From NCBI GenBank assembly GCA_024137785.1, contig JAHRHZ010000073.1:5132250-5196249 (forward strand): DNA of 64,000 bases. Direction: 5' to 3'. Shown piece after piece: positions 6,280-59,240 of this stretch. The notes below the pieces were generated by a model that saw only the letters and a list, made by a program, of their open reading frames with translations, was not told the DNA's origin and made no database searches. The position numbers were made by a program, and so were the translations under genes. Source of the stretch: Ginglymostoma cirratum (taxonomy: Eukaryota). Each line of letters opens with the position of its first letter. The stretch's first letter is position 1.

Positions 6280-6930
6280 AATATCCCAGCCCCATGTAGC
6301 TATCCATGACCTGAGTTCATCGGCCTTACCTCTCAGCTCTCTTGCATTGAAATAGGTGCAATTTAATCCAAAAGGTATTCCTCGCTTCCTGTCCTGTTCC
6401 AGCCTGACATGTCTCTTGAACTTGCTGTTTCTGATTATGTATCTCCTTCAGCCTCACAATTGCCTCCTTCACAATTGTTGAGGATCCCACTCCCGTCAAC
6501 TTCCTCTTGCAGTACTAGCAAATCTGCCCATCAGGTTATCTGTCCCCCACCAGTTCAAGTGCAACCCGACCTTCTTGAACAGGTCACCTCTGCCCCCAGA
6601 AAAGACTCCAATAATCCAGAAATCTGAATCCCTGCCCCCACACCAATTCTTTAGCCACGCATTCATCTGCTGCATCCTTCTGTTCTTATCCTCACTGGCC
6701 CATGGCAGTGGAAGTGATCTGGAGATTATTACCATTGAGGCCCTAGTTTTTAACTTCTTTCCTAGCTCTCTACAATCACTCCGCAGGACCTCATTTCTAT
6801 CTCCACCTATATCATTTGTGCAAATGTGCACAACGACTTCTAGCTGCTCACCCTCCCCCTTGACAGCATTCTGCAGTCGCTCCCAAGATATCCTGGACCT
6901 TGCACTCCTTGATACTAGGCCCACGACAAT
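6280..6930 (-). mobile_element. CR1 LINE ORF1 SGNH-esterase fragment
   Basis: ORF 6496-6924 has VVVHICTNDIG (family motif VVVHIGTNDIG), NAWLKNWC and GLHLN. Same strand as and upstream of the ORF2 piece, suggesting one internally deleted copy. Confidence 0.8.
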
Positions 6931-9599
6931 CCCCTCTTGAGAGCAGGTGAGTGCTTCCAGGCTCTAATGTATGCACCGGTGATGCCTCCCCCTCTCAGTT
7001 GCCCTCTGCTGGACACACTTCTTCCTGCTGATCACGGGGGCTGTTGCCAGATGATCTGCTCCTCAGTGCGGGTGACTGCTTCCAGGGACTAATGTATGTG
7101 TCGATCTGATGCCTCTCCCTCTCTGTGGTCCTCTGCTCGGCATTAGGGAAACTCAATTTCCTCTGGCTGGAGAATGTGTGACAAAGGACCAACCATTGTA
7201 GACATTTTTAAGAAAAGAACGAGCGTAACATAGGGAATATCAAGATGCAAAGAGTATCCACCTCATGGAGTATATAAACCATTGAGAGCTGCTGAGGAAG
7301 AGATCATCGCATCTATCAAAATTATGTTGGATAAACCCTAACAGCCGGTTTGTCACCTAACGGTCTGGTGGAATAGTGAGCGTATTGAGGACTCATGCAC
7401 CATGAAAGAATCATGACTACATGCCAGGAAACCATACACAGACCAGCATGACTCGCTTTGCTTGTGGTCACAAACAAGTTGCATATTGAGTGACTGGAAG
7501 ACATTCTTGTTGCAAAACTGCCAATTTAAAATGGGAAACTTGTAAGACTGCTAGAATTGTAAAAACAGCCCATTATGAGTTGAAGAAATCATAAGCAGTT
7601 ACTACTTCTACCCATCCCAAATTTTCTCTTACACCCTAATTGTAGTTAGCAGCATATTTTATTTATGTTTTGCCTCTGTCAGCTTGCTTAACATTGAAGC
7701 ATTTTTTGAGGTGTAGGTTAAACACTGGCCAGACTGATGGCATGCACGGTTTTACTTTGCTCACTCTTACAGCTTGTTGTGAAATTCCGTTAAGCCACGT
7801 TAATCCAGCTCCAACACTAAACTGTCTATCATTCCAAAATATTTGGTAATATCACCCAGAAAAGCCACAGCTTGCCTGGTTTGGAAAATGGAAATAATTC
7901 ATACTGATGAAGTGCGAGATGCTCTGCTGAGAAAAAGACAGAAAGCAGAAGTCGCCTTATACTACATCTGATAATGCAGTGTTTGACCAGTTACGAAAGG
8001 AAGGTGATCCACCTGAAAGCACTAATATCCCCTATTTTAAGGTGGACGAGCACCAGAAGAAAAAATTAAAAGGAGCTAAATCATTTATGAATCAATTAGA
8101 AGGAATGGTCACTTGGGTCAAATGGCCTTCTTCCTAGCCCTAATATTTCTGCACACAGAGAAAATTATTGCTGTCAGATGTTGAGGTCACAGATTGCCAA
8201 TGGGAACATATCGAAGGTTATTTGTACAAAAGTTAATTTTTTTTATAAAGCTGACATAAGCTGTACAAACCCTTTGCTGAGAACTTCAAATGAAGCCTGC
8301 AATTGAGGAGATAATGCACTGATAATTAAATGAATTTATTTGATTGGCTAAATAGCCTTACTTATTGCATGCTTTTATGATGTTGAAATCTGGGAAAGAT
8401 TCCTTGTAACCTGTGCTCTTGATTTTAAGTTACCAAGTTTATATTTACATGCTTGTATACTCTATTCAGAATAAGTTAAAAAATACTTGTATGCTTCCTA
8501 TTGGTGCATTTCTGTACTGGCTTAGACTGGTGCTTCCAAATTTTCTTCAATTATTTCAAGTTCAGCATGATTATCCTAGTCATACAGTTAACAATTTTGA
8601 ATATCAGAACTGTCTTGTCACTGTTCGCAAAGCTTTTTTCAATGCATTATTAAGTTTTTGTTTCTACAGTAAAGTAGACAAAATTGTACAAACTATTTCT
8701 GTTTAGTTTAACTAATTCCTTATAAACATTTAAACTGTTTATGTCTGTTAAATATATGGCTTTAAATTGTTCCAGCAATATAGTCTGATGCATGTAAAAC
8801 AAGATGATATTGCTTGAATGTTTTCAGTGGGCATTTGATAATCACGCCCAAAGATCATTTTTTGCCTATTTTCGCTAATAAACACCCATCTTTCATCCTG
8901 CCTCCTCCAACAAAGCATATCCATAAATTTCTTACAATGGAAAGTAAACTTCCTTAATAAAAAAAAATTCTTCAGAACATTCAAATGAAATCTACCCAAA
9001 CATCCTAATCAGACCAATTCATACTAACCCCATAGGGAAAAATACAATAAACACAACAAGTAATTTGAAAACTGAATTCCTGAATGATTCACGAGATCTT
9101 TTAACATGAATGTGTTTCTGGAGTTGAATTCATGAGCATCATTTTAAAATCTATCACAGATTAAATCCTGTTCATTCAGATTATCTGACTTCACTGACCC
9201 ACAGTGAATTCTTGAACCCATCTCAACATATCGCTACAATCTTTTCCATTCCAGAGCCCACTTCTGTACACTGCAGCCCTCCTCCAGTCATCTCTTATTA
9301 ATGGAAGTCTTCAGCAGAATCTCAGCACATTCTTTACATCTTCACTGCACTGTTTTTTTAAAATCTCAAACCATTTTCTTTAGTGAACTTTCAGTAAATA
9401 TTCTTGGTTTGGTATTTGATATTTGTACTTGGTATTAATAGGCACTATATAAGTACCACTTATTATTGTGATAAACATATTAACCATATTGTTGGCATCC
9501 CACTAAAAGTTGCCAACCGATACTTTCTTCCCTGATAAAATATTCACATTTCAAAGCCTGATGTATGAAGGAATTTTACTTTCCTTATCGACCAGTCAA

Positions 9600-11679: not shown

Positions 11680-12299
11680 AAGCCCAACAAGCCCGTGCCA
11701 ATTCCTAATCTTTATTTGGGCAAGCTAATTATTGCCTATGCATGGTTTCCATCCCTCTGTTCGCTTCACATTCATATGTCTATCAAGATGCGCCTCAAAC
11801 GTAGCTATCATGCCCGCTTCCATGATCTCCACTGGCAATGAATTCCAGGCACCCACCACCGTCTGTGTGAAAAACTTTCCCCCTCTCACCTTGAACCTGT
11901 GCCCTCATGCAGTTGATCTTTCCATCCTGGGGAAAAAACCTCTGACAATCCACCCTATCTACGTCTCTCATCATTTTGTAGACCTCTATTAGGTTGCCCC
12001 TCAGCCTCTGTCCTTCCAGTGAAGACAGCCTGAGTTTAAATAACCTGTCCTCGTAACTACAACCTTGCAGACCAGGAAACAGCCTGGTAAACCTTCTCTG
12101 CATCTTCTCCAAAACATCCACGTCCTTCTGGTAGTGTGGCAACCAGAACTGCATGCAATGTTCTAAATGTAGCCTAAGTAAAGTTTGATATAGCTGCAAT
12201 GTATCTTGCCAATTTTGATATTCAATGCCCGGCTGATGAAGGCAAGTGTGCAGTATGCCTTCTTGCCCACCTTATCCATCTCTGTTGACACTTTCAGGG
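11680..12299 (-). mobile_element. CR1 LINE 3' fragment
   Basis: ORF 11795-12199 QLYQTLLRLHLEHCMQFW..QRRFTRLFPGL..RLRGNLIEVYKMM. Confidence 0.9.
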
Positions 12300-13829: not shown

Positions 13830-15380
13830 AGGGAAATAGCACCGGGGAAATTGATGGGATTAAAATTGATCAATCCACAGGACCGGATAATTTACATCTC
13901 AGAATACTTAAGGAAGTGGCTCTAGAAATAGTGGATGTAATAGTGATCATCTTTTAAGGTTGTATGGACTCTAGAACAATTTCTGTGCATGTTAGGGTAG
14001 CTAATGTAGCCACACTATTTAAAAAGGAGGCAGACAGAAACAGGGATTTATGGACAGGTTTACCTGACATCAATAACAGGGAGAAAGCTAGAGTCCATTA
14101 CACAAAATTTCATAGCACGGCACTTAGAAAGCAGTGACAGAATCAGACAGTCATCATGAACTTACAAAAAGAAAATCACGTTTGAAAATCTATTGGCATT
14201 TTTGAGATATAAGTGGTACAATTGACAAGTGAAGTCAATGGATGGAGTTTACTTGGACTTTCGGAAGACTTTCAATAGGATCTCACATCAGACAGTAGCA
14301 TGTAAAATTAAAACACATGGGAATAAGGGAAACGGAACTGGTAGGCAAACAGAAAACAAGGAGCTGGAATAAGGTGGCTGTTTTCTTCGACCAGCAGGCA
14401 GTGACTCGTGAGGAGTACGGGGAACAATGCACGGACTCATTTCACACAATGTATATTATTGATTAAGATGAGGGAGCTAAGTGTAATGTCTCCAAGTTTT
14501 AGGCGACACAAAGCTCGGTTGGAGGGTCAACTGACAGGAGCATGGAGAGATGCTTCAGGTATAATGTCCACAAGTTAAAAGAATGGAGAAAATGTGTGGT
14601 CGACATAGCATATGCGGTTAAATTGCAGGTATTCACTTTGGTAGCAAGAATAGGAAGGCAGATTATTACATGAATGGTGATAGATGAGGAAAGTGGGTGG
14701 TACAACAACAGCTTGGTGTCCTTGTGCACCAGTCGCGGAAAGTAAGTGATGCAAGTGCAGCAGGCAGTGAAGAAGGCAAATGGCATGTTGGCTTTTCTCG
14801 CAAGGGGATTCAAGTATAGGAACAGGGATGTCTCACTGCAATTGTGCACAGCCTTGGTGAGTCCACATCTGGAGAACTGTTTGCAATTTTGGTTCCCTTA
14901 TCTAAGGATAGCTGTTCCAGCTATGAAAGGAATATAACAAAGGTTTACCAGACTGATTCCTAGGATAGCAGGACTGATGTGTGAGAGAAACTAAATTGGT
15001 TAGGACCATATTCACTGGAGTTTTAGAAGAATGAGGAAGAATCAATAATAGAAGCCTGTAAAACTCTAACATGACAAGACAGGGTAAATGCAGGAAGGAA
15101 GAACCCAATGATCTGGGGGGAGGAGTGGGGGTGAGAAAGAGGTGTGTCCACAGCAAAGGGTCACAGATTATGGGTGTGGGGTAGGTCATTTAGGACTGAG
15201 ATGAGGAGAAATTTCTTCAGCCAGAGAATGGTCAGCCTGTAGAATTATCTACCCAGAAAGCAGCTGAGACCAACACATTGAATATTTTCAAGAAGGAAAT
15301 GTGCGACCATGATTATAATGAAACTCAGAGCACTCTCAAAGGACGGAATGGCCTATTCCTGCTGCTATTTTCTCTGTTTG
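13830..15380 (+). mobile_element. CR1 LINE ORF2 RT fragment (~1.5 kb), decayed
   Basis: The ANV.PLFKKG region (~14000-14030), the YLDFRK.F region (~14250) and ORF 14746-14937 (VKKANGMLAF..LVSPHLENCLQFW). Confidence 0.88.
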
Positions 15381-15402
15381 TGAAGTAACAAGACCCAAAC
15401 AG

Positions 15403-15836
15403 TATCAATGTGGATTTCACAAGCTTCAAAATCTCCCCTCCCCCAACCGCATCCCAAAACCAGCCCAGCTCATCTCCACCTCCCTAACCTGTTTTTCCTC
15501 TCACCCCAAGCCACACCCCCATCTCCTATCTACTAACATCATCCCGCCCCCTTGACCTGTCCGTCCTCCCTGGACTGACCTATCTCCTCCCTACCCCCCC
15601 ACCTACACTCACCTTTACTAGCTCCATCCCCGCCTCTTCGACTTGTCTGCCTCCTCTCCACCTATCCTCTCCTCTATCCATCCTCTATCTACCTCCCCCT
15701 CTCTCCCTATTTATTTCAGAACCGTCTTCCCCTCCCCCATTTCTGATGAAGGGTTTAGGCCCGAAACGTCAAGTTTTCCTGCTCCTATGATGCTGCTTGG
15801 CCTGCTGTGCTCATCCAGCCCCACGCCTTGTTATCT
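15403..15836 (+). mobile_element. Penelope-like element 3' end/pLTR
   Basis: The first ~160 nt are near-identical to 35804-35964, the 3' end of the GIY-YIG copy; contains a hammerhead-like core. Confidence 0.8.
15739..15774 (+). ncRNA. Putative minimal type I hammerhead ribozyme (PLE-associated)
   Basis: attt-CTGATGA-A-GGGT-ttag-GCCC-GAAAC-GTC-aagt: both catalytic boxes intact, 4-bp stem II, palindromic ACGT stem III, short stem I. Confidence 0.55.
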
Positions 15837-16489
15837 AGAATACGGTGTATAATGTTAATGGTGTTATAGATTCACAAATTATGGAAGGCATTGTCTACAT
15901 GACCATGGCAGCTAACCCTGGTGACTGGATTTGCTGCTAGTCCAACCTCATACACTTCTTGAGCACCTCACTTTCCTCATATATGTCCTCAGTTCTTGGC
16001 CATGCAATCCTCTATTTCAAACTCTTGGTCACACTCAATTTTGTTCCACTCATGTCTGTGAGCAGTGATGGGAGATAGCAAAACGATGAGCATTAAAATT
16101 TCCCTAATTATGGGACTACATGGTGATTGATATGACTCCTTCTATGCAAGGGATAGACTGGTTTAACAGAATTGAAGTTGGAAATTGAGAGTAAGAGGCA
16201 CTTTGCCCACATGATTCAACGCAAGTGGATAAAGGTTCATGTAAAGGAAACTTTGCTCCACGGTGAAACAACTTCCATTACCCCAACTTCAAAACTGCAC
16301 CACCCACTGCATCTATGTGGCAATTTCATTTGCCACACTAGACATATTTGTGGTGTCTCTGAGCGATACTGCTAATTCAGGACCAAATTATCAGTAATTT
16401 GGAATCTACTCATGCACATAAATCTAACTGAAAGCAACCAAAACCGATTTACTTTGAACTCCTGCATTATTAGAGAGAAGATATTTTCA

Positions 16490-18680: not shown

Positions 18681-18873
18681 GCACATTTGGTTTTGAAAAC
18701 TGTCTGCATGGTCATGTTGAACACCAATCTGCAAGGAGACAACTAACCACAACAAAACCACAATCTACTACATTTTGAAAAGTTAAAAGAAATCAGCATA
18801 GCTATTACTTCCATTTAAAGGGAGGAGTTTTAAAATGTACAGCTGTCTAGTAGGAGTCTCTCATATATAAATA
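18681..18873 (+). promoter_or_regulatory. Proximal promoter of col10a1 paralog A
   Basis: CCAAT 18724-18728; two RUNX sites AACCACA at 18745-18751 and 18756-18762; TTTAAAGGGAGGAGTT 18814-18829; TATATAAATA 18864-18873. All are colinear with the B promoter. Confidence 0.8.
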
Positions 18874-18894
18874 CCAGCATCTATCTTTTTGAAA

Positions 18895-18984
18895 GCACTA
18901 CTACATCAGAACTTCCATGATTTCAAGGGGATAATCTATTGGGGATGTTAAACTGAAACACAGTCCAAGAGGCAAGATATGCAG
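18895..18984 (+). other. col10a1: col10a1-A exon 1 (5' UTR; TSS approximate)
   Basis: About 30 nt downstream of the TATA box; donor CAG|GTATGT at 18985; similar to B exon 1 (ggataatc.att.gg..gaggcaa..tatgc.g|gta.gt). Confidence 0.7.
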
Positions 18985-19346
18985 GTATGTTGTACTTCAA
19001 TTTTTAATCATGTTAACATGCAAAAGGATAAGGAGGCACGGTGCTAGATTAGAACTAGTTTTGGCTGCATTGGCAAATTAAGTTTGTATTATTCTCTTCA
19101 TGCAGTTCTCTGTCTTGGTTTGTTTATGTTGGTCTGAAACATGGGCATTAAGAATGGGGCCTACTCAAGATTTGTCAGTTTTTGCGTCCCCCCCCACCCC
19201 GCGTTCACTGCCAGACAGGTTGTTTGACAGAAGGAACCATTTTCAATGTCTCATGCGCGGTTTTATCAAGATGGTCTGCATCATTCTTCCTGTTAAAGAA
19301 TATAAACAAATATCTATTAAAATTCTTATAGATTCTATCCACAAGC

Positions 19347-19455
19347 ATGATTTCAGTGGAAACTGGTGCATTTCTGGTGTTCGTATCTGTTTCTCTGGTG
19401 AATGGAATAGGATACGTGGGATACAACCAATCACCATATAATACGAAAAGTCAGG
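19347..19455 (+). CDS. col10a1: col10a1-A coding exon (exon 2: signal peptide + NC2), MISVETGAFLVFVSVSLVNGIGYVGYNQSPYNTKSQ
   Basis: Acceptor cttatag|19332, then 15 nt of UTR before the ATG as in mammalian COL10A1 exon 2. Signal peptide ends SLVNG (human NLVHG). Phase-1 donor G|GTAAGT at 19456. Confidence 0.88.
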
Positions 19456-19740: not shown

Positions 19741-19950
19741 AATAAAAACCGAAAGAACTGCAGATGCTGTAAATCAGGAACAAAAGCAAAGTTGCTGGAA
19801 AAGCTCTACAGGTCTGGCAGCATCTGTGAAGGAAAAAACAGAGTTAACGTTTCAGGTTCGGTCAGTGGACCTGAAACGTTAACTCTGTTTTTTTCCTTCA
19901 CAGACGCTGCCAGACCTGTAGAGCTTTTCCAGCAGCTTTGCTTTTGTTCC
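19741..19950. mobile_element. Fold-back Penelope-derived mini-element (~85-bp stem, 7-nt loop) with 15-bp TSD
   Basis: Arms 19775-19859 and 19867-19952 are near-perfect reverse complements; TSD TGTCACAAGAAACAT (19726-19740) / TGTCACAAAAAACAT (19951-19965). Confidence 0.85.
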
Positions 19951-21964: not shown

Positions 21965-22317
21965 TTTCAGATGTGTACCCTGTATTTAATCTCACACAGC
22001 TCCTTGCACACTTTCAGGAAAGCAGCTCAAGAACTGCACAGGCAATTTTTTGTGAGATTCTAAATTATCCAGTATGTTAACTAGAAAATGTTAAGTACTA
22101 TAGATGGAAGAGACTAAAAGGAAAAAGTATCATGATTCCAAAATAATGTCAACAGTTTGAGTGCATAACACATAAAAGTCATCTTTCAACTCAGCACTGT
22201 TGGTCTGAGATAGATTTTAACAATTGTTAATATTAACTAATCCGTACGTAATATGCACAAGTGCATTGATCGATGGAAAAATTTCCAAAATGGGAGGAGA
22301 AATTACAATTTAGCTGT
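21965..22317 (+). repeat. Direct duplication copy 1 (353 bp)
   Basis: >95% identical by eye to 23609-23960. Confidence 0.95.
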
Positions 22318-22391
22318 ATGTTCAAGTCAAATTTAATTTAGTTTGGTTATGTTATTTTTCTTGTAACTCACAACCTGTTTTAATAAAACAG

Positions 22392-22451
22392 GTTATGAAT
22401 TGAAAGGTGTTCCTTATCAGAGTCTTGAGGAAAATCCAAAGGGCATCACAG
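22392..22451 (+). CDS. col10a1: col10a1-A extra NC2 exon (60 nt, phase 1-1): (G)YELKGVPYQSLEENPKGIT
   Basis: aaaacag| acceptor, ACAG|GTAAGA donor, open in the required phase. Splicing to the last exon yields KGITVRGDPG (human KGIAVRGEQG). Resembles B exon 59169-59240. Confidence 0.8.
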
Positions 22452-23608
22452 GTAAGAAATAACTAGTATTTATATGTTTAACATAAGCCTTTTGTGATAT
22501 CAGATAGGTTATAATGTAAGTTAAATAAGTGTTTGTCCTATTTGACAAGAAAATTGTGAGAAATAAATGCTCATTCCAAGCTTTTTCTATCACCAACTTC
22601 ATGGCATAATTCATATCTAATTGATAAGAAAAAGAAATGGATCTCCGTAACAGCAGATTTCTACCCTGATAGTCTTATCACACGCAATACCAGTAGGAAG
22701 TTGATGGGGTGCTTGCTGTATTTCAAATCAATAATGTACCTTACATCATCATTTAGACATGCTCAAAATTTCTTTAGGAATTATGCAGTGAAAACTTCAC
22801 TGAAATAACAGTGTTTAAGATGTTGTGCATGGTTTTAAAATGTTACTGCACTGTTTAATTTGCACGCGGGGTGGGTAGAAATTTTTAGTTACCATTCTCA
22901 TTGATGTTTGGACCAATGTGCACTTCCCATCTTGCTCCAATTTGTCTATCCACCCACATTAAAGTAGCATCCTGGATTGCTGAGGACTAGATACATACAT
23001 TTAAAAAATGCAAAGAACGATGCAAGAAATTTTACTTACAACTTAAATAAATTTATTACTCATTTAAACAGTTTTGCGCCTGTCATTTATATATTTGTGG
23101 CAGTTATGTAAAACAATATTTTCTGAACAAATGCAACCATACCAAGGTGTTCGGGAAACTTGCGATATCTGTATTTTTTTGAAAGGAAAAGAAGAATGAT
23201 CAGCAAAGAGATCAAGGAAGGTGGAACTGGACCAAAGATGGTCTGCACCCACCCTCATATGCATCTTTACAACCTGAGGTGGATCTAACTAAAACTGCCA
23301 CAAGCCATCGATCCTAAAGAAAGCTGAGACTGATTTATGTCAATGTTGCAACATGGATCTGAGCCGCGCCTTGTCCACAGGCATATCTCTAAATCTTCCA
23401 AAGGACCCACCCACCAGCAACTTCAATTGTAACTGGCAATCCATAGCACACATATGTAAAGTGTGGGGCCTGTACCCTGTTTATTCAAGGGGCAATTTCA
23501 CCTTACCTGTAAGCAACCATCAGAGAACTTTGCAGTTTTAACAAAAAACAACTGGATATCCAAAGGCCCAAGGATAATGGCTATGGATTAAACTCAAGAT
23601 CTTATTTG

Positions 23609-23960
23609 TTTCAGATGTTTACCCTGTATTTAATCTCACACAGCTACCTTGCACACTTTCAGGAAAGCAGCTCAAGAACTGCACAGGCAATTTTCTGAGA
23701 TTCTAAATTATCCGGTATGTTAACTAGAAAATGTTAAGTACTATAGATGGAAGAGACTAAAAGGAAAAAGTATCATGATTCCAAAATAATGTCAACAGTT
23801 TGAGTGCCAAACACATAAAAGTCATCATTCAACTCAGCACTGTTGGTCTGAGATAGATTTTAACAATTGTTAATATTAACTAATCCGTATGTAATATGCA
23901 CAAATGCATTGATCAATGGAAAAATTTCCAAAATGGGAGGAGAAATTACAATTTAGCTGT
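23609..23960 (+). repeat. Direct duplication copy 2 (352 bp)
   Basis: >95% identical by eye to 21965-22317. Confidence 0.95.
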
Positions 23961-26329
23961 CAGCTACGTGGCTCAGAAAGTATTGTCACGCTTAATGTTC
24001 AGCTTGTTTACTGGAGTCTGAAGAAAGGCAGTTTTCATGCTACAGACAGCTACCAAATTCTTTTTACTTTAAGGCATTCTAAGGTACTACTACAAAGACA
24101 AATGCCAATATGACCCTTAGGTTAAAAAAAGTTATCCTCTGGGACTGCAATTCATGACGCCTTCAGAGTTTCCCAGGGTACCAGTTGAAAATGAAATCTG
24201 CCCTAGCTAAAATCATAAGTGACATTCTTCATAACTGTGGTTCATTATTTTGTGTTGTCCTCCCCAGATCTTTACTGAATTGCAAAAATTTAACAGCACC
24301 AAAAGAGGCCACTTGGTTCTTGATGTACATGCTAGCGCCCCAAATGAACAGCTCACTTACAGCCATTCTCCTGCCTTCTCCCTGTATACCACACATTGTT
24401 CCTTAAACAAGTAACCATCCAATTTAACTGCCTCCACTCCACTCTTTGGCAGTGGTTTCCAGGCTCTAATCACTCTTTGCATGAAATTTATTTTCCTCAT
24501 CTTACTTCTGTTTGTTTCTGTTCCCTCTTGATTTTGATCATTTCCTGATTAGGAACATTTTCTTTCTTTTACTCTGAACAGACCTCTCACGATTTTGAAT
24601 ACTTCAATCTGATTTCTTCTCAGCCTTCCTGTCTTCAAGGAAAACGTGATCATTGACATAGTCGAATGTGCTATCGTCCTCCATTGCCTATCATCTGTTT
24701 CCAATGCTATGTGATTGCTCCTGTGCTATTTCATTTCCATCTGTTTCAGACACAACCATCTCATTTTCAGGAGCATCTCTCTTGCTACCATACCTGACCT
24801 AGGATTCCCCAAGAATGTCACACACTGGCTCCTTTCCCATCCACTTACATCCATGTATATGCAACTCCAGGACATTATTCACAGGGATGGACGTCATCAG
24901 CTTCTATGTGAATGTGGACAACATATTTAATAATCTGCCCACCACTTGTCTGAACCACATCATTATGTTTATGCTGTTAAGACCACTTGTTTGACATCAA
25001 ATTGTGGAAAGGTCAAAATATCCATTAATTGAACACTGAGACTACTGAGGACATCGACTGTTCAGCCACTGCTATAAAACTAGTCTCTGTTACTACAAAT
25101 TCCATAACCCACTGGCCAGACTCTGAGGCGGAACCAGACAGTTTAATAACCTTGGCATCCTGTTTGACCCAGAGCTGAGTTTCAAACTCTGCACCATAAT
25201 CCATTATCCTGACCACTCACTTCCACCTCTACAACATCACCTTCTCTTGCACCTTACCTCAGCTCTGATGTTACTGAAATGTTCATCAATGTTTTTGTCA
25301 CCTCTGAATTCAAAGTGGGGGGTGAGGAATGTTTAAACGTTTGTGGGAGAATCTCAGACTGTCCTTCGATCCTCTGGCATTGGTGAATCCATACACTCTG
25401 TGGTGTGCTGCAGCACTGAATAAACATCCTGCCAAGCTGTGTACTTATGGCTAGCTGACTCACCAGTAATTTGCTTACTGACACATCTGTTCAGGTTCTG
25501 CCAGAACTGCTTGGCACCAGATATCATCACAGCCTTGAGTCAGATATGGAAACAAAAGCAACATCAGAGGAGACATAAGAATAGCTGCCCCCCAAAGTAA
25601 GAAAGCAGCTGGCAACATAAGGCACTGAACACCCCAAAGAAAGACTGATGCAAATTGAGGTTAATGAAAAGAAAATCACCAGAGACTGGAATCTCATACA
25701 ACTGAAAGAAATATGCTTGTGTTGTCAGCAACTAACCGTCACAATTTTGGGAAATCACTGCAGGAGTTTGTCGCGGTAACATCCTTAACTCAACCAACTA
25801 CAGCTACTTAAAATGATCTTATGTCTGCCACAGTCAAGGCGTTCAGTTGTTTGCTGACATTTCTACAGAAATCAGTTCCATTACATGTCCTTCAACATGG
25901 AAGCAACTCAAGCAGTGAAAAACAGCAAATGGACACCATCCAACCGCAGGACAGATTACTGCAGGTAACATTCATGTCAAAAGCAAAATGCTACAAATGC
26001 TGGAAATATCTGGTAGATGTGGTGAGAGAAACAGAGTTTAATGCTTCACATCTGTGATCTTCCATGAGCTGCTGAATTTATCCAGCATTTATTGCTTTCA
26101 CGTCACTTAAGTGCCTGGCATTGACAGTCTCCTGTGATTAAAAACAAACTGAACAATAATCTCCCTGACTTTGAATGGCACCATCATCACAACTTCTCAA
26201 AATCTACAAAGAGTTATGAATTGTCTTTCCCATGCCTAGAACTTGTACTCTGTCATTATAAGTGCTCGAGAAACTGTGGCCGAGAACAAGATATTGAATC
26301 TCCAGCCCTGTTCGCAATAAATAACACCC

Positions 26330-26900
26330 CATTGTAAGCAGTTATGAAATTCTGGGACCTTGGGGTTATGGTGACATACAATCTGTTTCTTGATGTAGAC
26401 CTCAAAATATGCATAATGAGAACAATGAGTAGCTTCGGCCAACTCGCAAGATGCAAATTGGGTAACTGCAACTTGAACTTGAGGACCAAGTCATTGGTTT
26501 ATAAGGTCTTTTTGCTCTCAGCAGCTAACTGTATGGCATGAGTAACTTACAGTTGCCAGGACAAGAAGCCCAATCATTTCCACCTTCTGTCTGCAGTGTA
26601 TCACGGTTAATATCCGGCAGAACAAAATTGTGAATAAAGTGGATTTCTTAAAGGCACGACTCCCTAATGCTTTGGCAGTAATTAAACAGAGGCAGCATTT
26701 TTTTTCTGGGGTGCGGAATTGGACACTGCACAAGGATATAAGACAATCACAAACCCAAAGACTCTGTGTGTGTTGATGTGACTGGGGCCAGATAACCAGC
26801 AAGACAACCAAAGCTCTGCTTCAAGGATACTTGCAAGTGTGACATGAAGGCTCTAAATATTGCGCTTCACACCCAGAAGTCAGTAGCGGGCAAAAAAATC
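26330..26900 (+). mobile_element. RTE-clade LINE RT C-terminal remnant
   Basis: ORF 26344-26541 DLG..SSFGQLA..LNLRTKSLVYKVFLLS followed by ctgtatggc (LYG), typical of RTE/BovB-type RT. Confidence 0.55.
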
Positions 26901-29900
26901 ATGTCAACCTCTTGCAGACTCAAGTGAACCACCACAACCAACAATGATTGCAGTTGCAATGCTGAAAACAAGAACACAAAACATGCCTTGCCAATTTTTT
27001 TTTTAATCTAGTCTGCCTCTCAAAGATTAGTTTCTTCAGCCATCTGCCAAGGTACACCAAATGAAGACATACCACCTAAATCGAGTGTTTGCCAGATAGC
27101 CATCATTTCTCGTAGATGGAAGGATATCAAGACTTAATCAAAGCTCTTGAGTTACCAGTAACCAGACACATAACCGAACCAGGCGTACCAACAAAGTAAC
27201 GATAAGAATGGCTCACTTTCTGCACCCTCAAAGTCTCTTCAGCAGCTACGTGACACAAGCCAAGGGTGTGATGAAATTGTTAAAAAAAACACTGAATTCC
27301 ATTCACTTGACTGGAACCTCATCACTGCAGGTGAACATTGGCCACAGTATGTATGATCTGTAAGGCAGTCTCACTGATTTTGTCCATTAATTCCAGAACA
27401 AGCAAAGTCATAGCAATACCTTTGATTGGAGGACTGCTTTGGCTGGAATGCATTCCAAGGTGCACTTGAAGGAAAACTTACAAAAGGAAGCTGCTGGTGT
27501 TAAGTTTGCCCTGTACATAATGGACATCCACAGCACAGTTAAAAACAGTGTTAAAAGGATATAAATTTCAATTGGTATAGATGCTTTGAACACATGAAAT
27601 TAACAAATGGAAGCATGTTTCTTTCCTTTGGCTGACCTTGTAAAAAGTCACCAACCTTGTTGCCACATTGCCTCCAGGTATGTGGTATGTAGTTATGACA
27701 TTCACATTGGTTGGCAGCTCGCCTCTGGGACCTACAACAAACTATCGCAAATAGAGTCCTCCAGTGTCTCACTTCACTCACCAAATTTCCTAAGGACTAA
27801 CTGAAGAAACAGGGTGTTCTATGTGCTCTTGAAGTAGCAGTAGACATGTTTCTAAACAATAGTGTTGCCTTCCAAACCACAAAGCTGCAGGCTGTAAATG
27901 CTAAATTGTGGGCATTTTTCACATTGGATGCTTACTTCCATTATAAAATTATGCTGATCTTAGAAAAACATGTGAATATGTGAAGAGTGGATCAGAAGGG
28001 TATTCTTCCCACATTGCTTAACATTTCATCAAATTTGAGTTTTAATAGAGAATATATTTAATACAAAACGAAAATGAGCAAAAATGGATTTATTGAAATA
28101 ATTCTTAAATACATAAAAAAACCATGTTAATTTTAAACAGAAAGTTATTATAGCTGCAATTCCATGCTTTCCCGACGGTAGAATCAATTCAATATTATCT
28201 GAATTTTTGAACTGAATTGGACATTATCAATGATTCAATACTCTTAATGTTGAAATTGTTTCCACCAGTATTGATGGCCAATATATTTGATTTTCCATTT
28301 AACGAAGAATATTAGGATTCATTAAACCATGAATATCCCATTGAAACCATTAACATCAGAAATGTTGTTATTTTGAAATGACAGCATGCATTATATGACT
28401 GTGTGATAAATGCAAGAACTTTCACAATTTATAAATGGCCAGATCATTCTACAGCTATCAATCCATAGAAACATAAATGCTAAAAGTCGCTCTTGAACAA
28501 ATAGTTTTCCAGATTCAAATGTAGATTTGTCAACTGAAGGGTAATATATATTATTTAGTCATTTCATGGTATAAATATTAATAAGTACATTTTTAAAACG
28601 AACATTTTTCATGATAATCTTCAATCAGAGCCTAAATTGGTTAAGCATTCTAAATGTGCTCAGCCAAGGCTTTCAACATAAACGTAACACAGGGTCAAAC
28701 TCACTTGCAAACTAACTTTAATTAGTTTTGAGGTATGCAGTTTGTTTAAGTTTCCTGTTAAACTAATTTGCATATAATTAGTTTTTTTTTTAAATCTTGC
28801 AATAGCCAGCTAAACGTTTCAGAATGAACTTTTGTTTAAATCGTTTGTATAAAAAATGTCTTGACAAAAGTAAGTGTGTAATATGATACAAATTTTCATA
28901 CAACTGAAAATAGCTTTGTTACAAAAAAGCATTGAAATCAAAATGCCTCATCATCTGTCATTAATCTGAAGTTTGCAATTGGAAAAATTATTTTAAATAA
29001 ATATACAAATTAACAATACATAGAACAATTCACTGGATACACTGGTGGTAGTGAATCTCTTAGTTCTAAAAAAAATGTAAAAGCATTCGAAATATGCCAA
29101 TTGAGTCTTACTGATAAAATAATGCTTAATTTGACAGCCTCTTTGAATGTCCACATACAATCACAACTAGCAGAAACTCAATGATCTGATCTGGTTTCAG
29201 AATCGGTTTCTGGAGTGATGTTTTTTGCAACAATCCCAAATGGTTGTGGAAAATCCATTTCTGCCAAATGTAGTTGCAATTGAATTTCCCCAACCTTTCG
29301 GGCTGGTTTTGCCTTGCTCCATTCTTATCTGGTGCCTTACTTCTCGCATCACCACACTAATGTAATGTCGGGGGGAAAAAGTAACATTGGAGCCCTTCAG
29401 TATCCTAACTATCACCAAATGCTGTTCATTATGACCACTAACATCACACCTTTGCTCAATGACCTACATTACCTGTACTTCCATCCTCTACTGCCAAACC
29501 GCAACCCCCCCCAAACACCTGCCCACCACCACACTCCCTCCTACCCACCCACCCTCGTGCCAGTGGGTGAGCATCAAATCAACTTTAACATTCTCATCTT
29601 TGTTTTCAAATAATTCACTGGCCTTCCTACGTTCTTAATCTCCCTCAGCCCTATATTTTAAGATGCCCGCACTTCTAACTTTAATTTACTCCAGGACTAG
29701 TACTTGTCCTTTCATCTGTGTTGATCCAAGGTGTGGAATTCCCTCCATAAATCACACTGTCTCTATCTCACTTTCCTCCTTTAAGAACTCCTTAAAACCT
29801 ACCACTTTGAGTTTTTGCTCCTCTGCGCTAATATCTCCATATATAGCTCAGGTTGTATTTTGCTTAGAGTACCTATCTGAAGTACCTTTTAATATTTTAG

Positions 29901-30236
29901 TGTTATGGGCACAATATCATCACTATATGATTACTATGCTCAGTCACTTTTCGGCAAAAGGTATTGAAAAACCCACTGCAACATATCTGCACTCTTAAAA
30001 ATGATGATTCTAATACCTGTACATCAAATTTCTCTCGTCAAGCTAGTAGAATGGAAGTATTTTTAATTTACAACAATGGCCAAGACCATCTTACCCATTT
30101 AAGTACAAAACTTCTTTTAATTATTGTTGTTCATTGATTATTATTCTCACTTCAATACAATATGTCAATCAAAATTACCCTGTATTTAACGTATCAGTAC
30201 TTCTGGAATCTAAGATATATATTTCTACTTTCACAG

Positions 30237-32068
30237 TGAGAGGAGATCCAGGAATGCCTGGACCACCAGGACCTCCAGGACCCCCCGGACCCCCAGGGCA
30301 AGCTGGGTATCCAGGAAAGCCAGGTGTTGGGTTGATGGGACCCCCTGGCAGTCCAGGACAACCAGGGCCACAAGGACTAACTGTAAAGGGAACTCCAGGC
30401 ATTCCAGGAGTACCAGGGCCTGCAGGGAGAATAGGGTATCCTGGACAAAAAGGCGATAAAGGAATTCAAGGGATACAAGGGCAAAGAGGTAGTCCAGGCC
30501 CTCCAGGAAATCCCGGACCAGCTGGATTGTCTGTTGTTGGTAAACCAGGCCCACAAGGGGCAGTAGGACCTCCAGGAGTACCAGGATTACCCGGAGCAAA
30601 GGGACACCCAGGTTATCCAGGCCTCCCTGGTCAAAAGGGGGATAAAGGAATTGGAATTCCAGGGACTTCAGGTGAAAGAGGGCTGCCTGGGCCACGAGGG
30701 GCACCAGGAACTCCAGGACCAGCAGGATTAACTACATCAGGTGCACCTGGACTTCCTGGTGAACCAGGTAAAAAAGGTGAAATGGGACCACCAGGTCCAT
30801 CGGGTTTTACTGGAGCACCAGGTCATAAAGGGCCACCAGGACCACCTGGACCAACAGGAATAGGAAAGCCTGGAGCTGCAGGTGTACCAGGATTGCAAGG
30901 GCCCCCTGGTTTGAAAGGTCATCCTGGCATACAAGGTTTGCCAGGGGCACCAGGACTGCCAGGTATTGGAAAACCAGGCATGCCAGGGCTGAAAGGAGAA
31001 CCTGGCCCGGTAGGTTATCCTGGATATCCTGGAAAGAAAGGAGAGATGGGACCCATCGGCAAGTCAGGAGACCCTGGTTTGATGGGACCAGCTGGTCTTC
31101 CAGGAGCACAAGGCCCTCGAGGTCTACAAGGAATTCCTGGTGCACCAGGAGAAAAAGGTGCACCAGGACACATGGGTGCACAAGGATATCCTGGATCAAA
31201 GGGTGAGAGAGGTGCAACTGGTGTTCCAGGAATATCAGGGTCTCCTGGGAAATCAGGCTCACCAGGACTACCAGGAACAGTTGGACCAGCCGGTCAAAAA
31301 GGGGATATTGGTCTCACTGGCCCAGCTGGGAAACCTGGAAATCCTGGTCCTCCTGGTCCTCAAGGTCCATTAGGTTTTCCAGGCGCAGTTGGATTACGAG
31401 GAGCACCCGGAATACCTGGTCATAAAGGCTTGCCTGGGTTGCCAGGCCCACAAGGGCCTCCTGGACTAAATGGTGCTCCAGGAAAACCAGGATTACCAGG
31501 TCCTCCGGGTCTCATTAGCAGAGAAATAACAAAGGGGCCACCAGGCGCACCAGGACGAACTGGTGCAGAAGGTGCTCCAGGTCCACCAGGCCTTCCTGGT
31601 CCACCAGGTTTACCTGGTGAAATCTTTGTACAACCAGAGAAATCGGTACAGCCACCACCTGGATTGCTGAGCCCTATTCCAGCTTTTACAGCCATTCTTT
31701 CTAGGCCATATCCACCAGTAGGCCAACCAATAATATTTGACATTCTAGTGACCAATTCAAATAATAATTATGATCCATCATCTGGTGTTTTTACATGTGA
31801 AGTACCAGGGCTTTATCAATTTAGTTACCATGTACAAATCAAGGGGGGGAATGTTTGGGTTTCATTATATAAAAACGGAAAATCCATACTGCAAACATAT
31901 GATGATTATACGAAAGGATATGTAGATCAGGCCTCAGGAAGTGCTATAGTACACCTACATGAAAATGACCAAGTCTACATACTATTACCTTCAGAGGAAG
32001 CTAATGGGTTATATTCATCTGATGAGAAACAGTCATCCTTCTCAGGGTTTTTAATCAGCCCTTCATGA
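30237..32068 (+). CDS. col10a1: col10a1-A last coding exon: ~459-aa Gly-X-Y domain with 8 imperfections + C1q/NC1 domain
   Basis: Acceptor ctttcacag|TG (phase 1, G|TG = Val). NC1 [42 protein letters not shown] matches COL10A1 (YDEYTKGYLDQASG) better than COL8A1; NC2 is short. Full protein about 666 aa. Confidence 0.95.
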
Positions 32069-35270: not shown

Positions 35271-36150
35271 AGAGAATCACAGAACAGTTAATGCGCAGGC
35301 GGCCATTCGACCCATTTTGCCTGCACCAGCTAGCACCAGCATCACTACCCAGTGCCAATCTCCTGCTCTTTTTCTGCACTCTTATCCATTATTTTTGTCA
35401 AAGTAAGTATTCAATGCCTTCTCGAATGCTTCAATTGAACCTGCCTCCTCCACGCTTCAAGGCAGTCTCCTCACCCCAATCCCAGGCCCCAAGAAGACTT
35501 TCCACATCAGGCAGAGGTTCACCTGCACATCTGCCAATGTGGTATACTGCATCCGCTGTACCCGTTGTGGCTTCCTCTACATCGGGGAAACCAAGCGGAG
35601 GCTTGGGGACCGCTTTGCAGAACACCTGCGCTCAGTTCGTAACAAACAACTGCACCTCCCAGTCGCGAACCATTTCAACTCCCCCTCCCAGTCCTCAGAT
35701 GACATGTCCATCCTTGGCCTCCTGCAATGCCACAGTGATGCCACCCGAAGGCTGCAGGAACAGCAAATCATATTCAGCCTGGGAACCCTGCAGCCCAATG
35801 GCATCAATGTGGATTTCACAAGCTTCAAAATCTCCCCTCCCCCAACCGCATCCCAAAACCAGCCCAGCTCATCTCCACCTCCCTAACCTGTTTTCCCTCT
35901 CACCTCAAGCCACACCCCCATCTCCTATCTACTAACATCATCCCGCCCCCTTGACCTGTCCGTCCTATCTACTTTATCAAGTGTGTTCATGATATTGAAA
36001 ATTCTAAAATTTATGTTAATTAATATTATGTCCAGTCTATTCATTCTTTCATGTGTATCATATAGGTGATGCTCTGTTTGTTTCAGGGCAAGACATTTAA
36101 ATTTGAATAGTTTGTTTGAAGAGAGAAACAGAAGACGTGCATTATAGCAT
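35271..36150 (-). repeat. Right arm of the composite inverted repeat, interrupted by a Penelope fragment
   Basis: 35271-35465 is the reverse complement of ~34519-34717; 35965-36150 is the reverse complement of ~34085-34392 without the 34173 insertion. Confidence 0.85.
35466..35964 (+). mobile_element. Penelope-like element GIY-YIG endonuclease fragment
   Basis: ORF 35539-35886 VYCIRCTRCGFLYIGETKRRLGDRFAEH..HF..QPNGIN is a canonical PLE GIY-YIG domain. Confidence 0.92.
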
Positions 36151-51250: not shown

Positions 51251-51450
51251 CACATTTGGTTTTGCAACTGTCTGCATGAGGTGGAGACCAATGCCAAAGA
51301 AGGCAAAACAGCTCAAACCACAAGAAATCCACTAACCTGATTTAACTTTTCCATGTTAAAAAAAATATATTCCATAATTAGCACTTTCACTTTTAAAGGG
51401 AGGAGTTGTCAAATTCAGCGATATGTCAAGAACTGTCTACTATATAAATA
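51251..51450 (+). promoter_or_regulatory. Proximal promoter of col10a1 paralog B
   Basis: cacatttggttttg..aactgtctgcatg block; CCAAT 51288-51292; RUNX AACCACA 51316-51322 (second site degenerate, AATCCAC 51326-51332); TTTAAAGGGAGGAGTT 51392-51407; TATATAAATA 51441-51450. Confidence 0.8.
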
Positions 51451-51469
51451 GAGCAACATGCATCGTTTT

Positions 51470-51554
51470 GGAATCATTGCTCCAGTTGACACTCCACAAA
51501 TTCAGAGGATAATCCATTTGGGTACTACATTGACTGTGGAGGCAAATTATGCTG
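51470..51554 (+). other. col10a1: col10a1-B exon 1 (5' UTR; TSS approximate)
   Basis: Donor CTG|GTAGGT at 51555; homologous to A exon 1. Confidence 0.7.
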
Positions 51555-51950
51555 GTAGGTTTGAGCTTCTATTTATAATCAATTTCTTAACGTACTTCCA
51601 AGATTCACAAGCAGTGAGGATTCATTCTGTTCATGCTGTATGCTGTCTACTCTATTTTAACTATTTTCTAGCAAATTTTGTCATCTGTTTTAGCTTCATA
51701 ATCTGCAAACTTTATAAAATGATTTGTTACAATATTAAGGAAAAATTTGGTGTCTAAATTTAATTATCATTAATTATGAAAGCTTCTCTGGTAACATCTG
51801 TTACCAGAAAGTGAAGAAACAATTTAAAATTTACAATAATCTTAATTTGATAATATTTACAAATAGTTCTATTGACTTCAAAAGAATATCTTCCTACCAA
51901 TGTTTCTACTAGTTCCTATTGATCCTTTTTTATAGATTTGAACATCAAAG

Positions 51951-52062
51951 ATGGATTCCAAACAAATCTGTGCTGTTCTGCTGTTACTATCTGTGACTCT
52001 GGTCCATGGAACAGGATATAATAGATATGCCTTCGTAAGGAAAAATGTAAAAAGCCACGGAG
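51951..52062 (+). CDS. col10a1: col10a1-B coding exon (exon 2: signal peptide + NC2), MDSKQICAVLLLLSVTLVHGTGYNRYAFVRKNVKSHG
   Basis: Acceptor ttttttatag|51936, 15 nt UTR, ATG in strong context (aagATGg); LLLLSVTLVHG vs human LLLVSLNLVHG; phase-1 donor G|GTAAAT at 52063. Confidence 0.9.
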
Positions 52063-59168: not shown

Positions 59169-59240
59169 ATTACAATGTAAAAGCATATGAATCTCAGAAC
59201 TCTGAAGATGAGGGATATGAAGACAATGATGAAAGCAGAG
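59169..59240 (+). CDS. col10a1: col10a1-B extra NC2 exon (72 nt, phase 1-1): (D)YNVKAYESQNSEDEGYEDNDESR
   Basis: Polypyrimidine tract + aacag| acceptor, strong GAG|GTGAGC donor, open in phase 1, purine/GAA-rich; its N-half resembles the extra exon of A. Confidence 0.82.

Follow-up and report, generated by a model that had tools for sequence, protein, structure and literature searches.

The locus examined here raises the question of whether a 60-nt stretch in a shark collagen X gene, with the signal-peptide exon on one side and the helix exon on the other, is a genuine exon and, if so, where it came from and what it may add to the protein. The window is the whole stretch of 64,000 nucleotides that was analysed, namely positions 5132250-5196249 of contig C73 (JAHRHZ010000073.1) of Ginglymostoma cirratum; window positions are used for genes A and B, and contig coordinates for the other copies.

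Genes A and B and the splicing of the 60-nt exon

Judging by sequence, genes A and B are shark Col10a1.3 and Col10a1.4, respectively, which places both among the chondrichthyan tandem duplicates Col10a1.1-.8 described by Debiais-Thibaud et al. 2019 (PMC6759074). Contig C73 carries six col10a1-type C1q domains; gene A holds the third place in this tandem cluster, groups apart from col8 in the tree, and is nearly identical, as judged by eye, to whale-shark Rt_Col10a1.3 from the supplement of PMC6759074, where the alignments are trimmed at the N-terminus (the published catshark.3 cDNA probe also stops short of it). Its protein has the make-up of a collagen X chain, with a signal peptide, a short NC2, a Gly-X-Y helix of about 460 aa and a C1q NC1 domain, and it matches the structure of collagen X itself (1GR3, E 4e-53). 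As for gene B, its small exon (59169-59240) carries the Col10a1.4 motif published in PMC6759074. The exons of gene A, all on the + strand, are as follows:

18864..18984, +, TATA box (18864-18873) and predicted non-coding exon 1 (about 18895-18984, donor after 18984), conserved in five paralog promoters
19332..19455, +, exon 2: 15 nt of UTR, then ATG at 19347; encodes the signal peptide and the first part of NC2, with a phase-1 donor; joined to exon 3 in the X9 contig
22392..22451, +, exon 3: 60 nt, phase 1-1, with one S-x-E(-E-N)
30237..32068, +, exon 4, coding part: last part of NC2, then the Gly-X-Y helix and the C1q/NC1 domain

Exon 22392-22451 reads G-YELKGVPYQSLEENPKGIT and is flanked by AG and GTAAGA; its acceptor is weak, and its peptide contains S-L-E. 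Joined to its neighbours (19347-19455 + 22392-22451 + 30237-32068), it gives a single open frame of 666 aa. The transcript evidence comes from run X9, in which a contig of 1574 nt (depth 11.3) shows a GT..AG joint at 22445>30231 that becomes 22451^30237 once the cut is moved by +6, together with a 31-letter loose end before 22391 that is identical to the end of exon 19347-19455. As the joint and the loose end lie on one contig, both junctions proposed in the preliminary description of this DNA, 19455^22392 and 22451^30237, are demonstrated, and the phase 1-1 exon that it had read from the letters is a real spliced exon of Col10a1.3. The library type of X9 is off record, and contigs drop rare isoforms. 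X9 is the only one of seven public runs with a spliced contig: X10, X13, X1 and X2 are without one, and X15 and X16 (raw RNA reads, of which 24% and 57% were read) give zero cover of the helix exon and are thus uninformative on inclusion or skipping. The symmetric phase had also been said to permit in-frame skipping; the frame of A does stay open when 22392-22451 is omitted, but neither a skipping joint nor a skipping loose end is listed for A in these seven runs, just one of which has a spliced contig.

Two observations concern the same transcripts. A processed retrocopy is an unlikely source of the X9 contig, no seventh col10a1-like C1q being found among the at least 33 matches listed. Over 22283-30476, runs X1 and X2 yield unspliced contigs, some of which have poly-T at the left end and, presumably, adapter-like sequence at the right. 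They are consistent with minus-strand nuclear RNA, for example from a host-gene intron; the Col10a1 cluster has been placed in intron 6 of Nt5dc1, on the opposite strand (PMC6759074).

Gene B has the same layout:

51443..51554, +, TATA box, followed by a non-coding exon 1 predicted from promoter conservation
51936..52062, +, exon 2: ATG at 51951, signal peptide, phase-1 donor
59169..59240, +, exon 3: 72 nt, phase 1-1, acidic, published Col10a1.4 motif, no S-x-E; an orthologous exon is found in the catshark.4 cDNA probe (PMC6759074)
59527..61367, +, exon 4, coding part: helix and C1q domain

The four-exon layout of A is well supported, with the junction of exon 1 deduced from conservation, and the four-exon architecture that had been claimed for both genes holds with the same qualification. 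The conserved promoter spans 18690-18984 in A and has counterparts in.2,.4,.5 and.6 that lie some 0.5-0.85 kb ahead of the ATG. GGAGGAG is invariant there and the TATA box is also conserved in the five copies; ACCACA, which we take to be a Runx-type site, is found in four of the five, and twice in A (18746-18751 and 18757-18762). Elsewhere in the window, retroelement-like ORF remnants and two very high-copy repeats occur at 6496-6963, 11795-12271 and 35407-35886 (all three on the minus strand), 15000-16200 and 19741-19921; we take the remnants to be LINE ORF1-like, a CR1-type RT tail and GIY-YIG-like. The window also contains 100 N.

A probable small-exon family in five copies

In five of the six copies, the signal exon and the helix exon have small phase 1-1 exons between them, one each in.2,.3,.4 and.6 and seven in.5. 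Apart from those of A and B, the single exons are:

C73:5115272-5115343, small exon of.2, carrying DSDSSEE
C73:5260448-5260486, small exon of.6

Their acceptors are similar and A-rich in all five copies, and the exons of.5 spell the DMP1-like SE domain already described. Read by eye, the catshark cDNA probes of PMC6759074 include the exons of.2,.4 and.6, and the.1 probe joins its signal exon straight to the helix exon. The Heterodontus RefSeq model XP_067876004.1 has the repeats of.5 as well as a.6 peptide that is identical. The filter with which introns were scanned for such exons was tuned on the known ones and picked after they had been seen; it recovers 9 of the 11, with 3 other matches in 61 kb.

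Several peculiarities of these genes deserve mention. One small exon of.5 (C73:5230245-5230319) is without GT at the homologous donor, with only a weak GT 3 nt earlier, and is missing from the published whale-shark model (PMC6759074); the helix exons of.5 and.6 have tandem AG acceptors 3 nt apart (C73:5233912 and 5263596). Col10a1.1 (C73:5344976-5346845) combines a very short NC2 and a long branch with a C-terminus that runs about 20 residues beyond the usual end. When shark.3 orthologues and full-length bony-vertebrate Col10a1 were sought at the protein level, only fragments and one fused Heterodontus model were returned; XP_067876004.1 is named "collagen alpha-2(IV) chain-like" and consists of a reverse-transcriptase fragment fused with Col10a1.5 and.6.

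Is the exon of A homologous to that of B and to the others? The preliminary description had aligned the two exons; they do share a Y-x-[LV]-K start, but their alignment, taken alone, is not above chance against shuffles (p 0.088 for protein and 0.75 for DNA), and a tblastn search with A's small exon missed B's. Pairwise against the 10 other small exons, A reaches p<0.05, uncorrected, with 3 in protein and 4 in DNA, all of them exons of.5; the best pair is A with.5c (p 0.006 for protein, 0.001 for DNA), and the pair with.6 gives p 0.97. When A is scored against a profile built, leave-one-out, from the remaining 10 exons, its score is equalled in 3 of 1000 shuffles and in 2 of 2000 pseudo-exons; for B the profile fit is equalled in 659 of 1000 shuffles and for.6 in 574 of 1000, so that these reflect composition only. 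The homology of A's exon thus depends on its position, its phase and a chain of likeness running through.5, and not on the alignment of A with B.

A separate origin of the small exons in several copies, or a lack of homology between the exons of A and B, would agree with the poor direct matches of A to B and to.6. We nevertheless hold it to be very improbable: the exons occupy the same intron in the same phase, with similar acceptors, in five copies; A is tied significantly to the.5 exons; and the start common to A and B, a motif chosen post hoc, is found in just 9 of 4923 pseudo-exons.

A further likeness fared less well. The end of A's exon had been matched, as KGIT, to human KGIA; K-G-I ends the exon in one of five copies, and the match is likely due to chance. 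The human COL10A1 intron, as we take it, falls inside the Gly codon of KGI, a few residues before the start of the helix, and the match therefore does not respect the exon boundary. The human collagen X helix starts at residue 57 (PMC8172203).

Origin and possible role of the small exon

The presence of the small exon in.2-.6 makes it older than the split of.3 and.4. To that extent the earlier claim that it predates the tandem duplication stands, but.1 is without the exon, and an age greater than that of the whole series does not follow. Outside.2-.6, the exon filter gave 0 candidates in the intron of Col10a1.1 (16.9 kb), 0 in the coding intron of col8a1 (C61:5313345-5333842, 20.5 kb) and 2 in that of col8a2 (C26:16337349-16386017, 48.7 kb, including 400 N), neither with family motifs; the comparison with col8a1 and col8a2 that had been suggested thus finds no family exon in either, and across the signal/helix exon junction shark col8a2 aligns collinearly with that of a tortoise. 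Mouse and human COL10A1 and medaka col10a1 resemble the shark genes in having a non-coding exon 1, a signal-peptide exon and one large exon for helix and NC1. Unlike shark A and B, they pass from exon 2 to exon 3 with no further coding exon in between: in mouse, Col10a1 consists of three exons, of which two are coding (PMC2172833, PMC2134813), and the C-terminal domain of medaka col10a1 lies in exon 3 (PMC10952040).

Loss in bony vertebrates and gain in chondrichthyans had been offered as equal options. They are not equal: the exon is missing from col8a1, col8a2, mouse, medaka and.1, which speaks for a gain within chondrichthyans, and a gain in early cartilaginous fishes is the likelier course. 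With a col8 root,.1 branches first (88/92), as in PMC6759074; a C1q-only tree leaves its position unsettled. One gain on the line to.2-.6 would account for all states, and we infer a single origin of the small exons, at about the time of the first duplication or later. As elephant-shark.5 has an SE domain (PMC6759074), the gain would fall before the shark-chimaera split. An intron ancestral to jawed-vertebrate Col10a1, with one loss in bony vertebrates and another in Col10a1.1, strikes us as decidedly improbable, as it takes one gain and two losses to explain the same absences. It draws some strength from the length of NC2, about 38 residues in total in A and thus near the 38 of human, and from the narrow span of the bony-vertebrate exon data, which are those of mouse and medaka; moreover,.1 may have lost the small exon, given its long branch and near lack of NC2. 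As for the birth of the exon, it may have involved an intron insertion plus an acidic extension, which a likeness to the end of the col8a2 NC2 would suggest (second half against.5f, p 0.003, one 4-residue word among 30 tests), or a partial duplication, suggested by a likeness of signal-exon tails to small exons (best p 0.002 among 50 tests); both are marginal after so many tests.

Our main reading, to which we give a probability of about 0.6, is that the 60-nt exon is spliced exon 3 of Col10a1.3 and a member of a family likely gained once in stem cartilaginous fishes, with a predicted Fam20C-phosphorylated or acidic patch. The small phase 1-1 exons of Col10a1.2-.6 would then form one family, and their module, placed at the N-terminal tip of the collagen trimer, is predicted to form a serine/acidic patch that Fam20C phosphorylates. 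Being symmetric, the small exon could be copied without frame shift, which makes its multiplication in.5 possible; it would have reached seven copies there and given rise to the published SE domain. By analogy, the module may supply phosphoserine or acidic patches for calcium or apatite, a role proposed for the S-x-E clusters of shark Scpp and Spp2 (PMC9122587, PMC13188829). Catshark.3 is expressed in ameloblasts and odontoblasts (PMC6759074), and fam20C is expressed in catshark ameloblasts (PMC9122587).

This functional step is weakest for Col10a1.3 itself, where the gain looks small. Its exon is the least acidic of the family (3 D/E, 2 K/R, 1 Ser), and so minimal a peptide would act chiefly as an NC2 spacer with a single predicted phosphosite. 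The S-L-E that had been read as the FAM20C consensus is present, in a secreted protein, but S-x-E by itself is a weak sign, since it occurs in 343 of 4923 pseudo-exons (7%) and is absent from B. One may go further and suppose that the exon, although homologous, is a neutral spacer in Col10a1.3, its S-x-E a product of chance or a vestige and the acidic role limited to.2,.4,.5 and.6. The near-neutral charge and the frequency of S-x-E among pseudo-exons speak for this, as does PMC6759074, which gives acidic motifs for.2,.4 and.5 and not for.3 in the parts consulted; the rarer S-x-E-E-N, common to A,.2 and three.5 exons, speaks against it (the pattern S-x-E-[ED]-N, chosen post hoc, is found in 8 of 4923 pseudo-exons), and we regard this reading as unlikely. 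Going beyond the main reading in the opposite direction, we suggest tentatively, as something short of probable, that one phase-1 S-x-E module was invented in cartilaginous-fish collagen X and spread by gene duplication and exon multiplication as a "dose dial" of phosphate and acid on tooth and scale collagens, all the published acidic domains descending from it.

Relation to published shark domains and to SCPP genes

The Col10a1 duplicates have been described before, and so have the acidic peptides of.2,.4 and.5: PMC6759074 reports short motifs for.2 and.4 and an SE domain for.5. The genes are the same as ours and the peptides sit at the same place in the protein, the.4 motif, the DSDSSEE of.2 and the SE domain of.5 coinciding with small exons; the difference is that PMC6759074 treats them as separate domains, whereas here all map to one exon family. 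NC2 and FAM20 give 0 matches in its main text, and in the parts consulted no Col10a1 exon structure is described and no domain is named for.3 or.6. A literature search, covering few subscription journals and theses, returned no exon structure of cartilaginous-fish Col10a1 and no.3 or.6 motif; public gene models may include the exon. We have thus not found the shared exon origin or the.3 and.6 members in print, although further content of the PMC6759074 supplement may bear on this. What is added here is the junction proof for.3 and the mapping of the acidic domains to one exon family that is absent from.1. Acidic domains described separately on shark collagen X copies would thereby get one origin, at the stem of cartilaginous fishes, a date that would coincide with the diversification of their hard tissues. 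Gene models are also corrected, as the small exon is easily missed and public models fuse or misname these genes. The known role of collagen X is unchanged.

One has to ask, lastly, whether such genes belong with the SCPP genes of osteichthyans and elasmobranchs (PMC9122587), which, like Col10a1, are secreted, have a signal-peptide exon followed by small acidic S-x-E exons and are active in tooth and scale cells. The two differ in their introns, mostly phase 0 in SCPP genes (PMC9122587) and all phase 1 here, and in their descent: SCPP genes derive from sparc-L/sparcl1 (PMC9122587), whereas gene A has a collagen X body with a C1q domain. As to an S-x-E within a D/E-rich region, A has one S-x-E and is not D/E-rich, and B is D/E-rich without S-x-E. 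Its phase 1 introns and its collagen host thus set gene A outside the SCPP genes, and the likeness of the Col10a1 small exons to them is convergence, not membership; if the dose-dial suggestion is true, the module would represent an independent arrival at an SCPP-like solution, built on a collagen.
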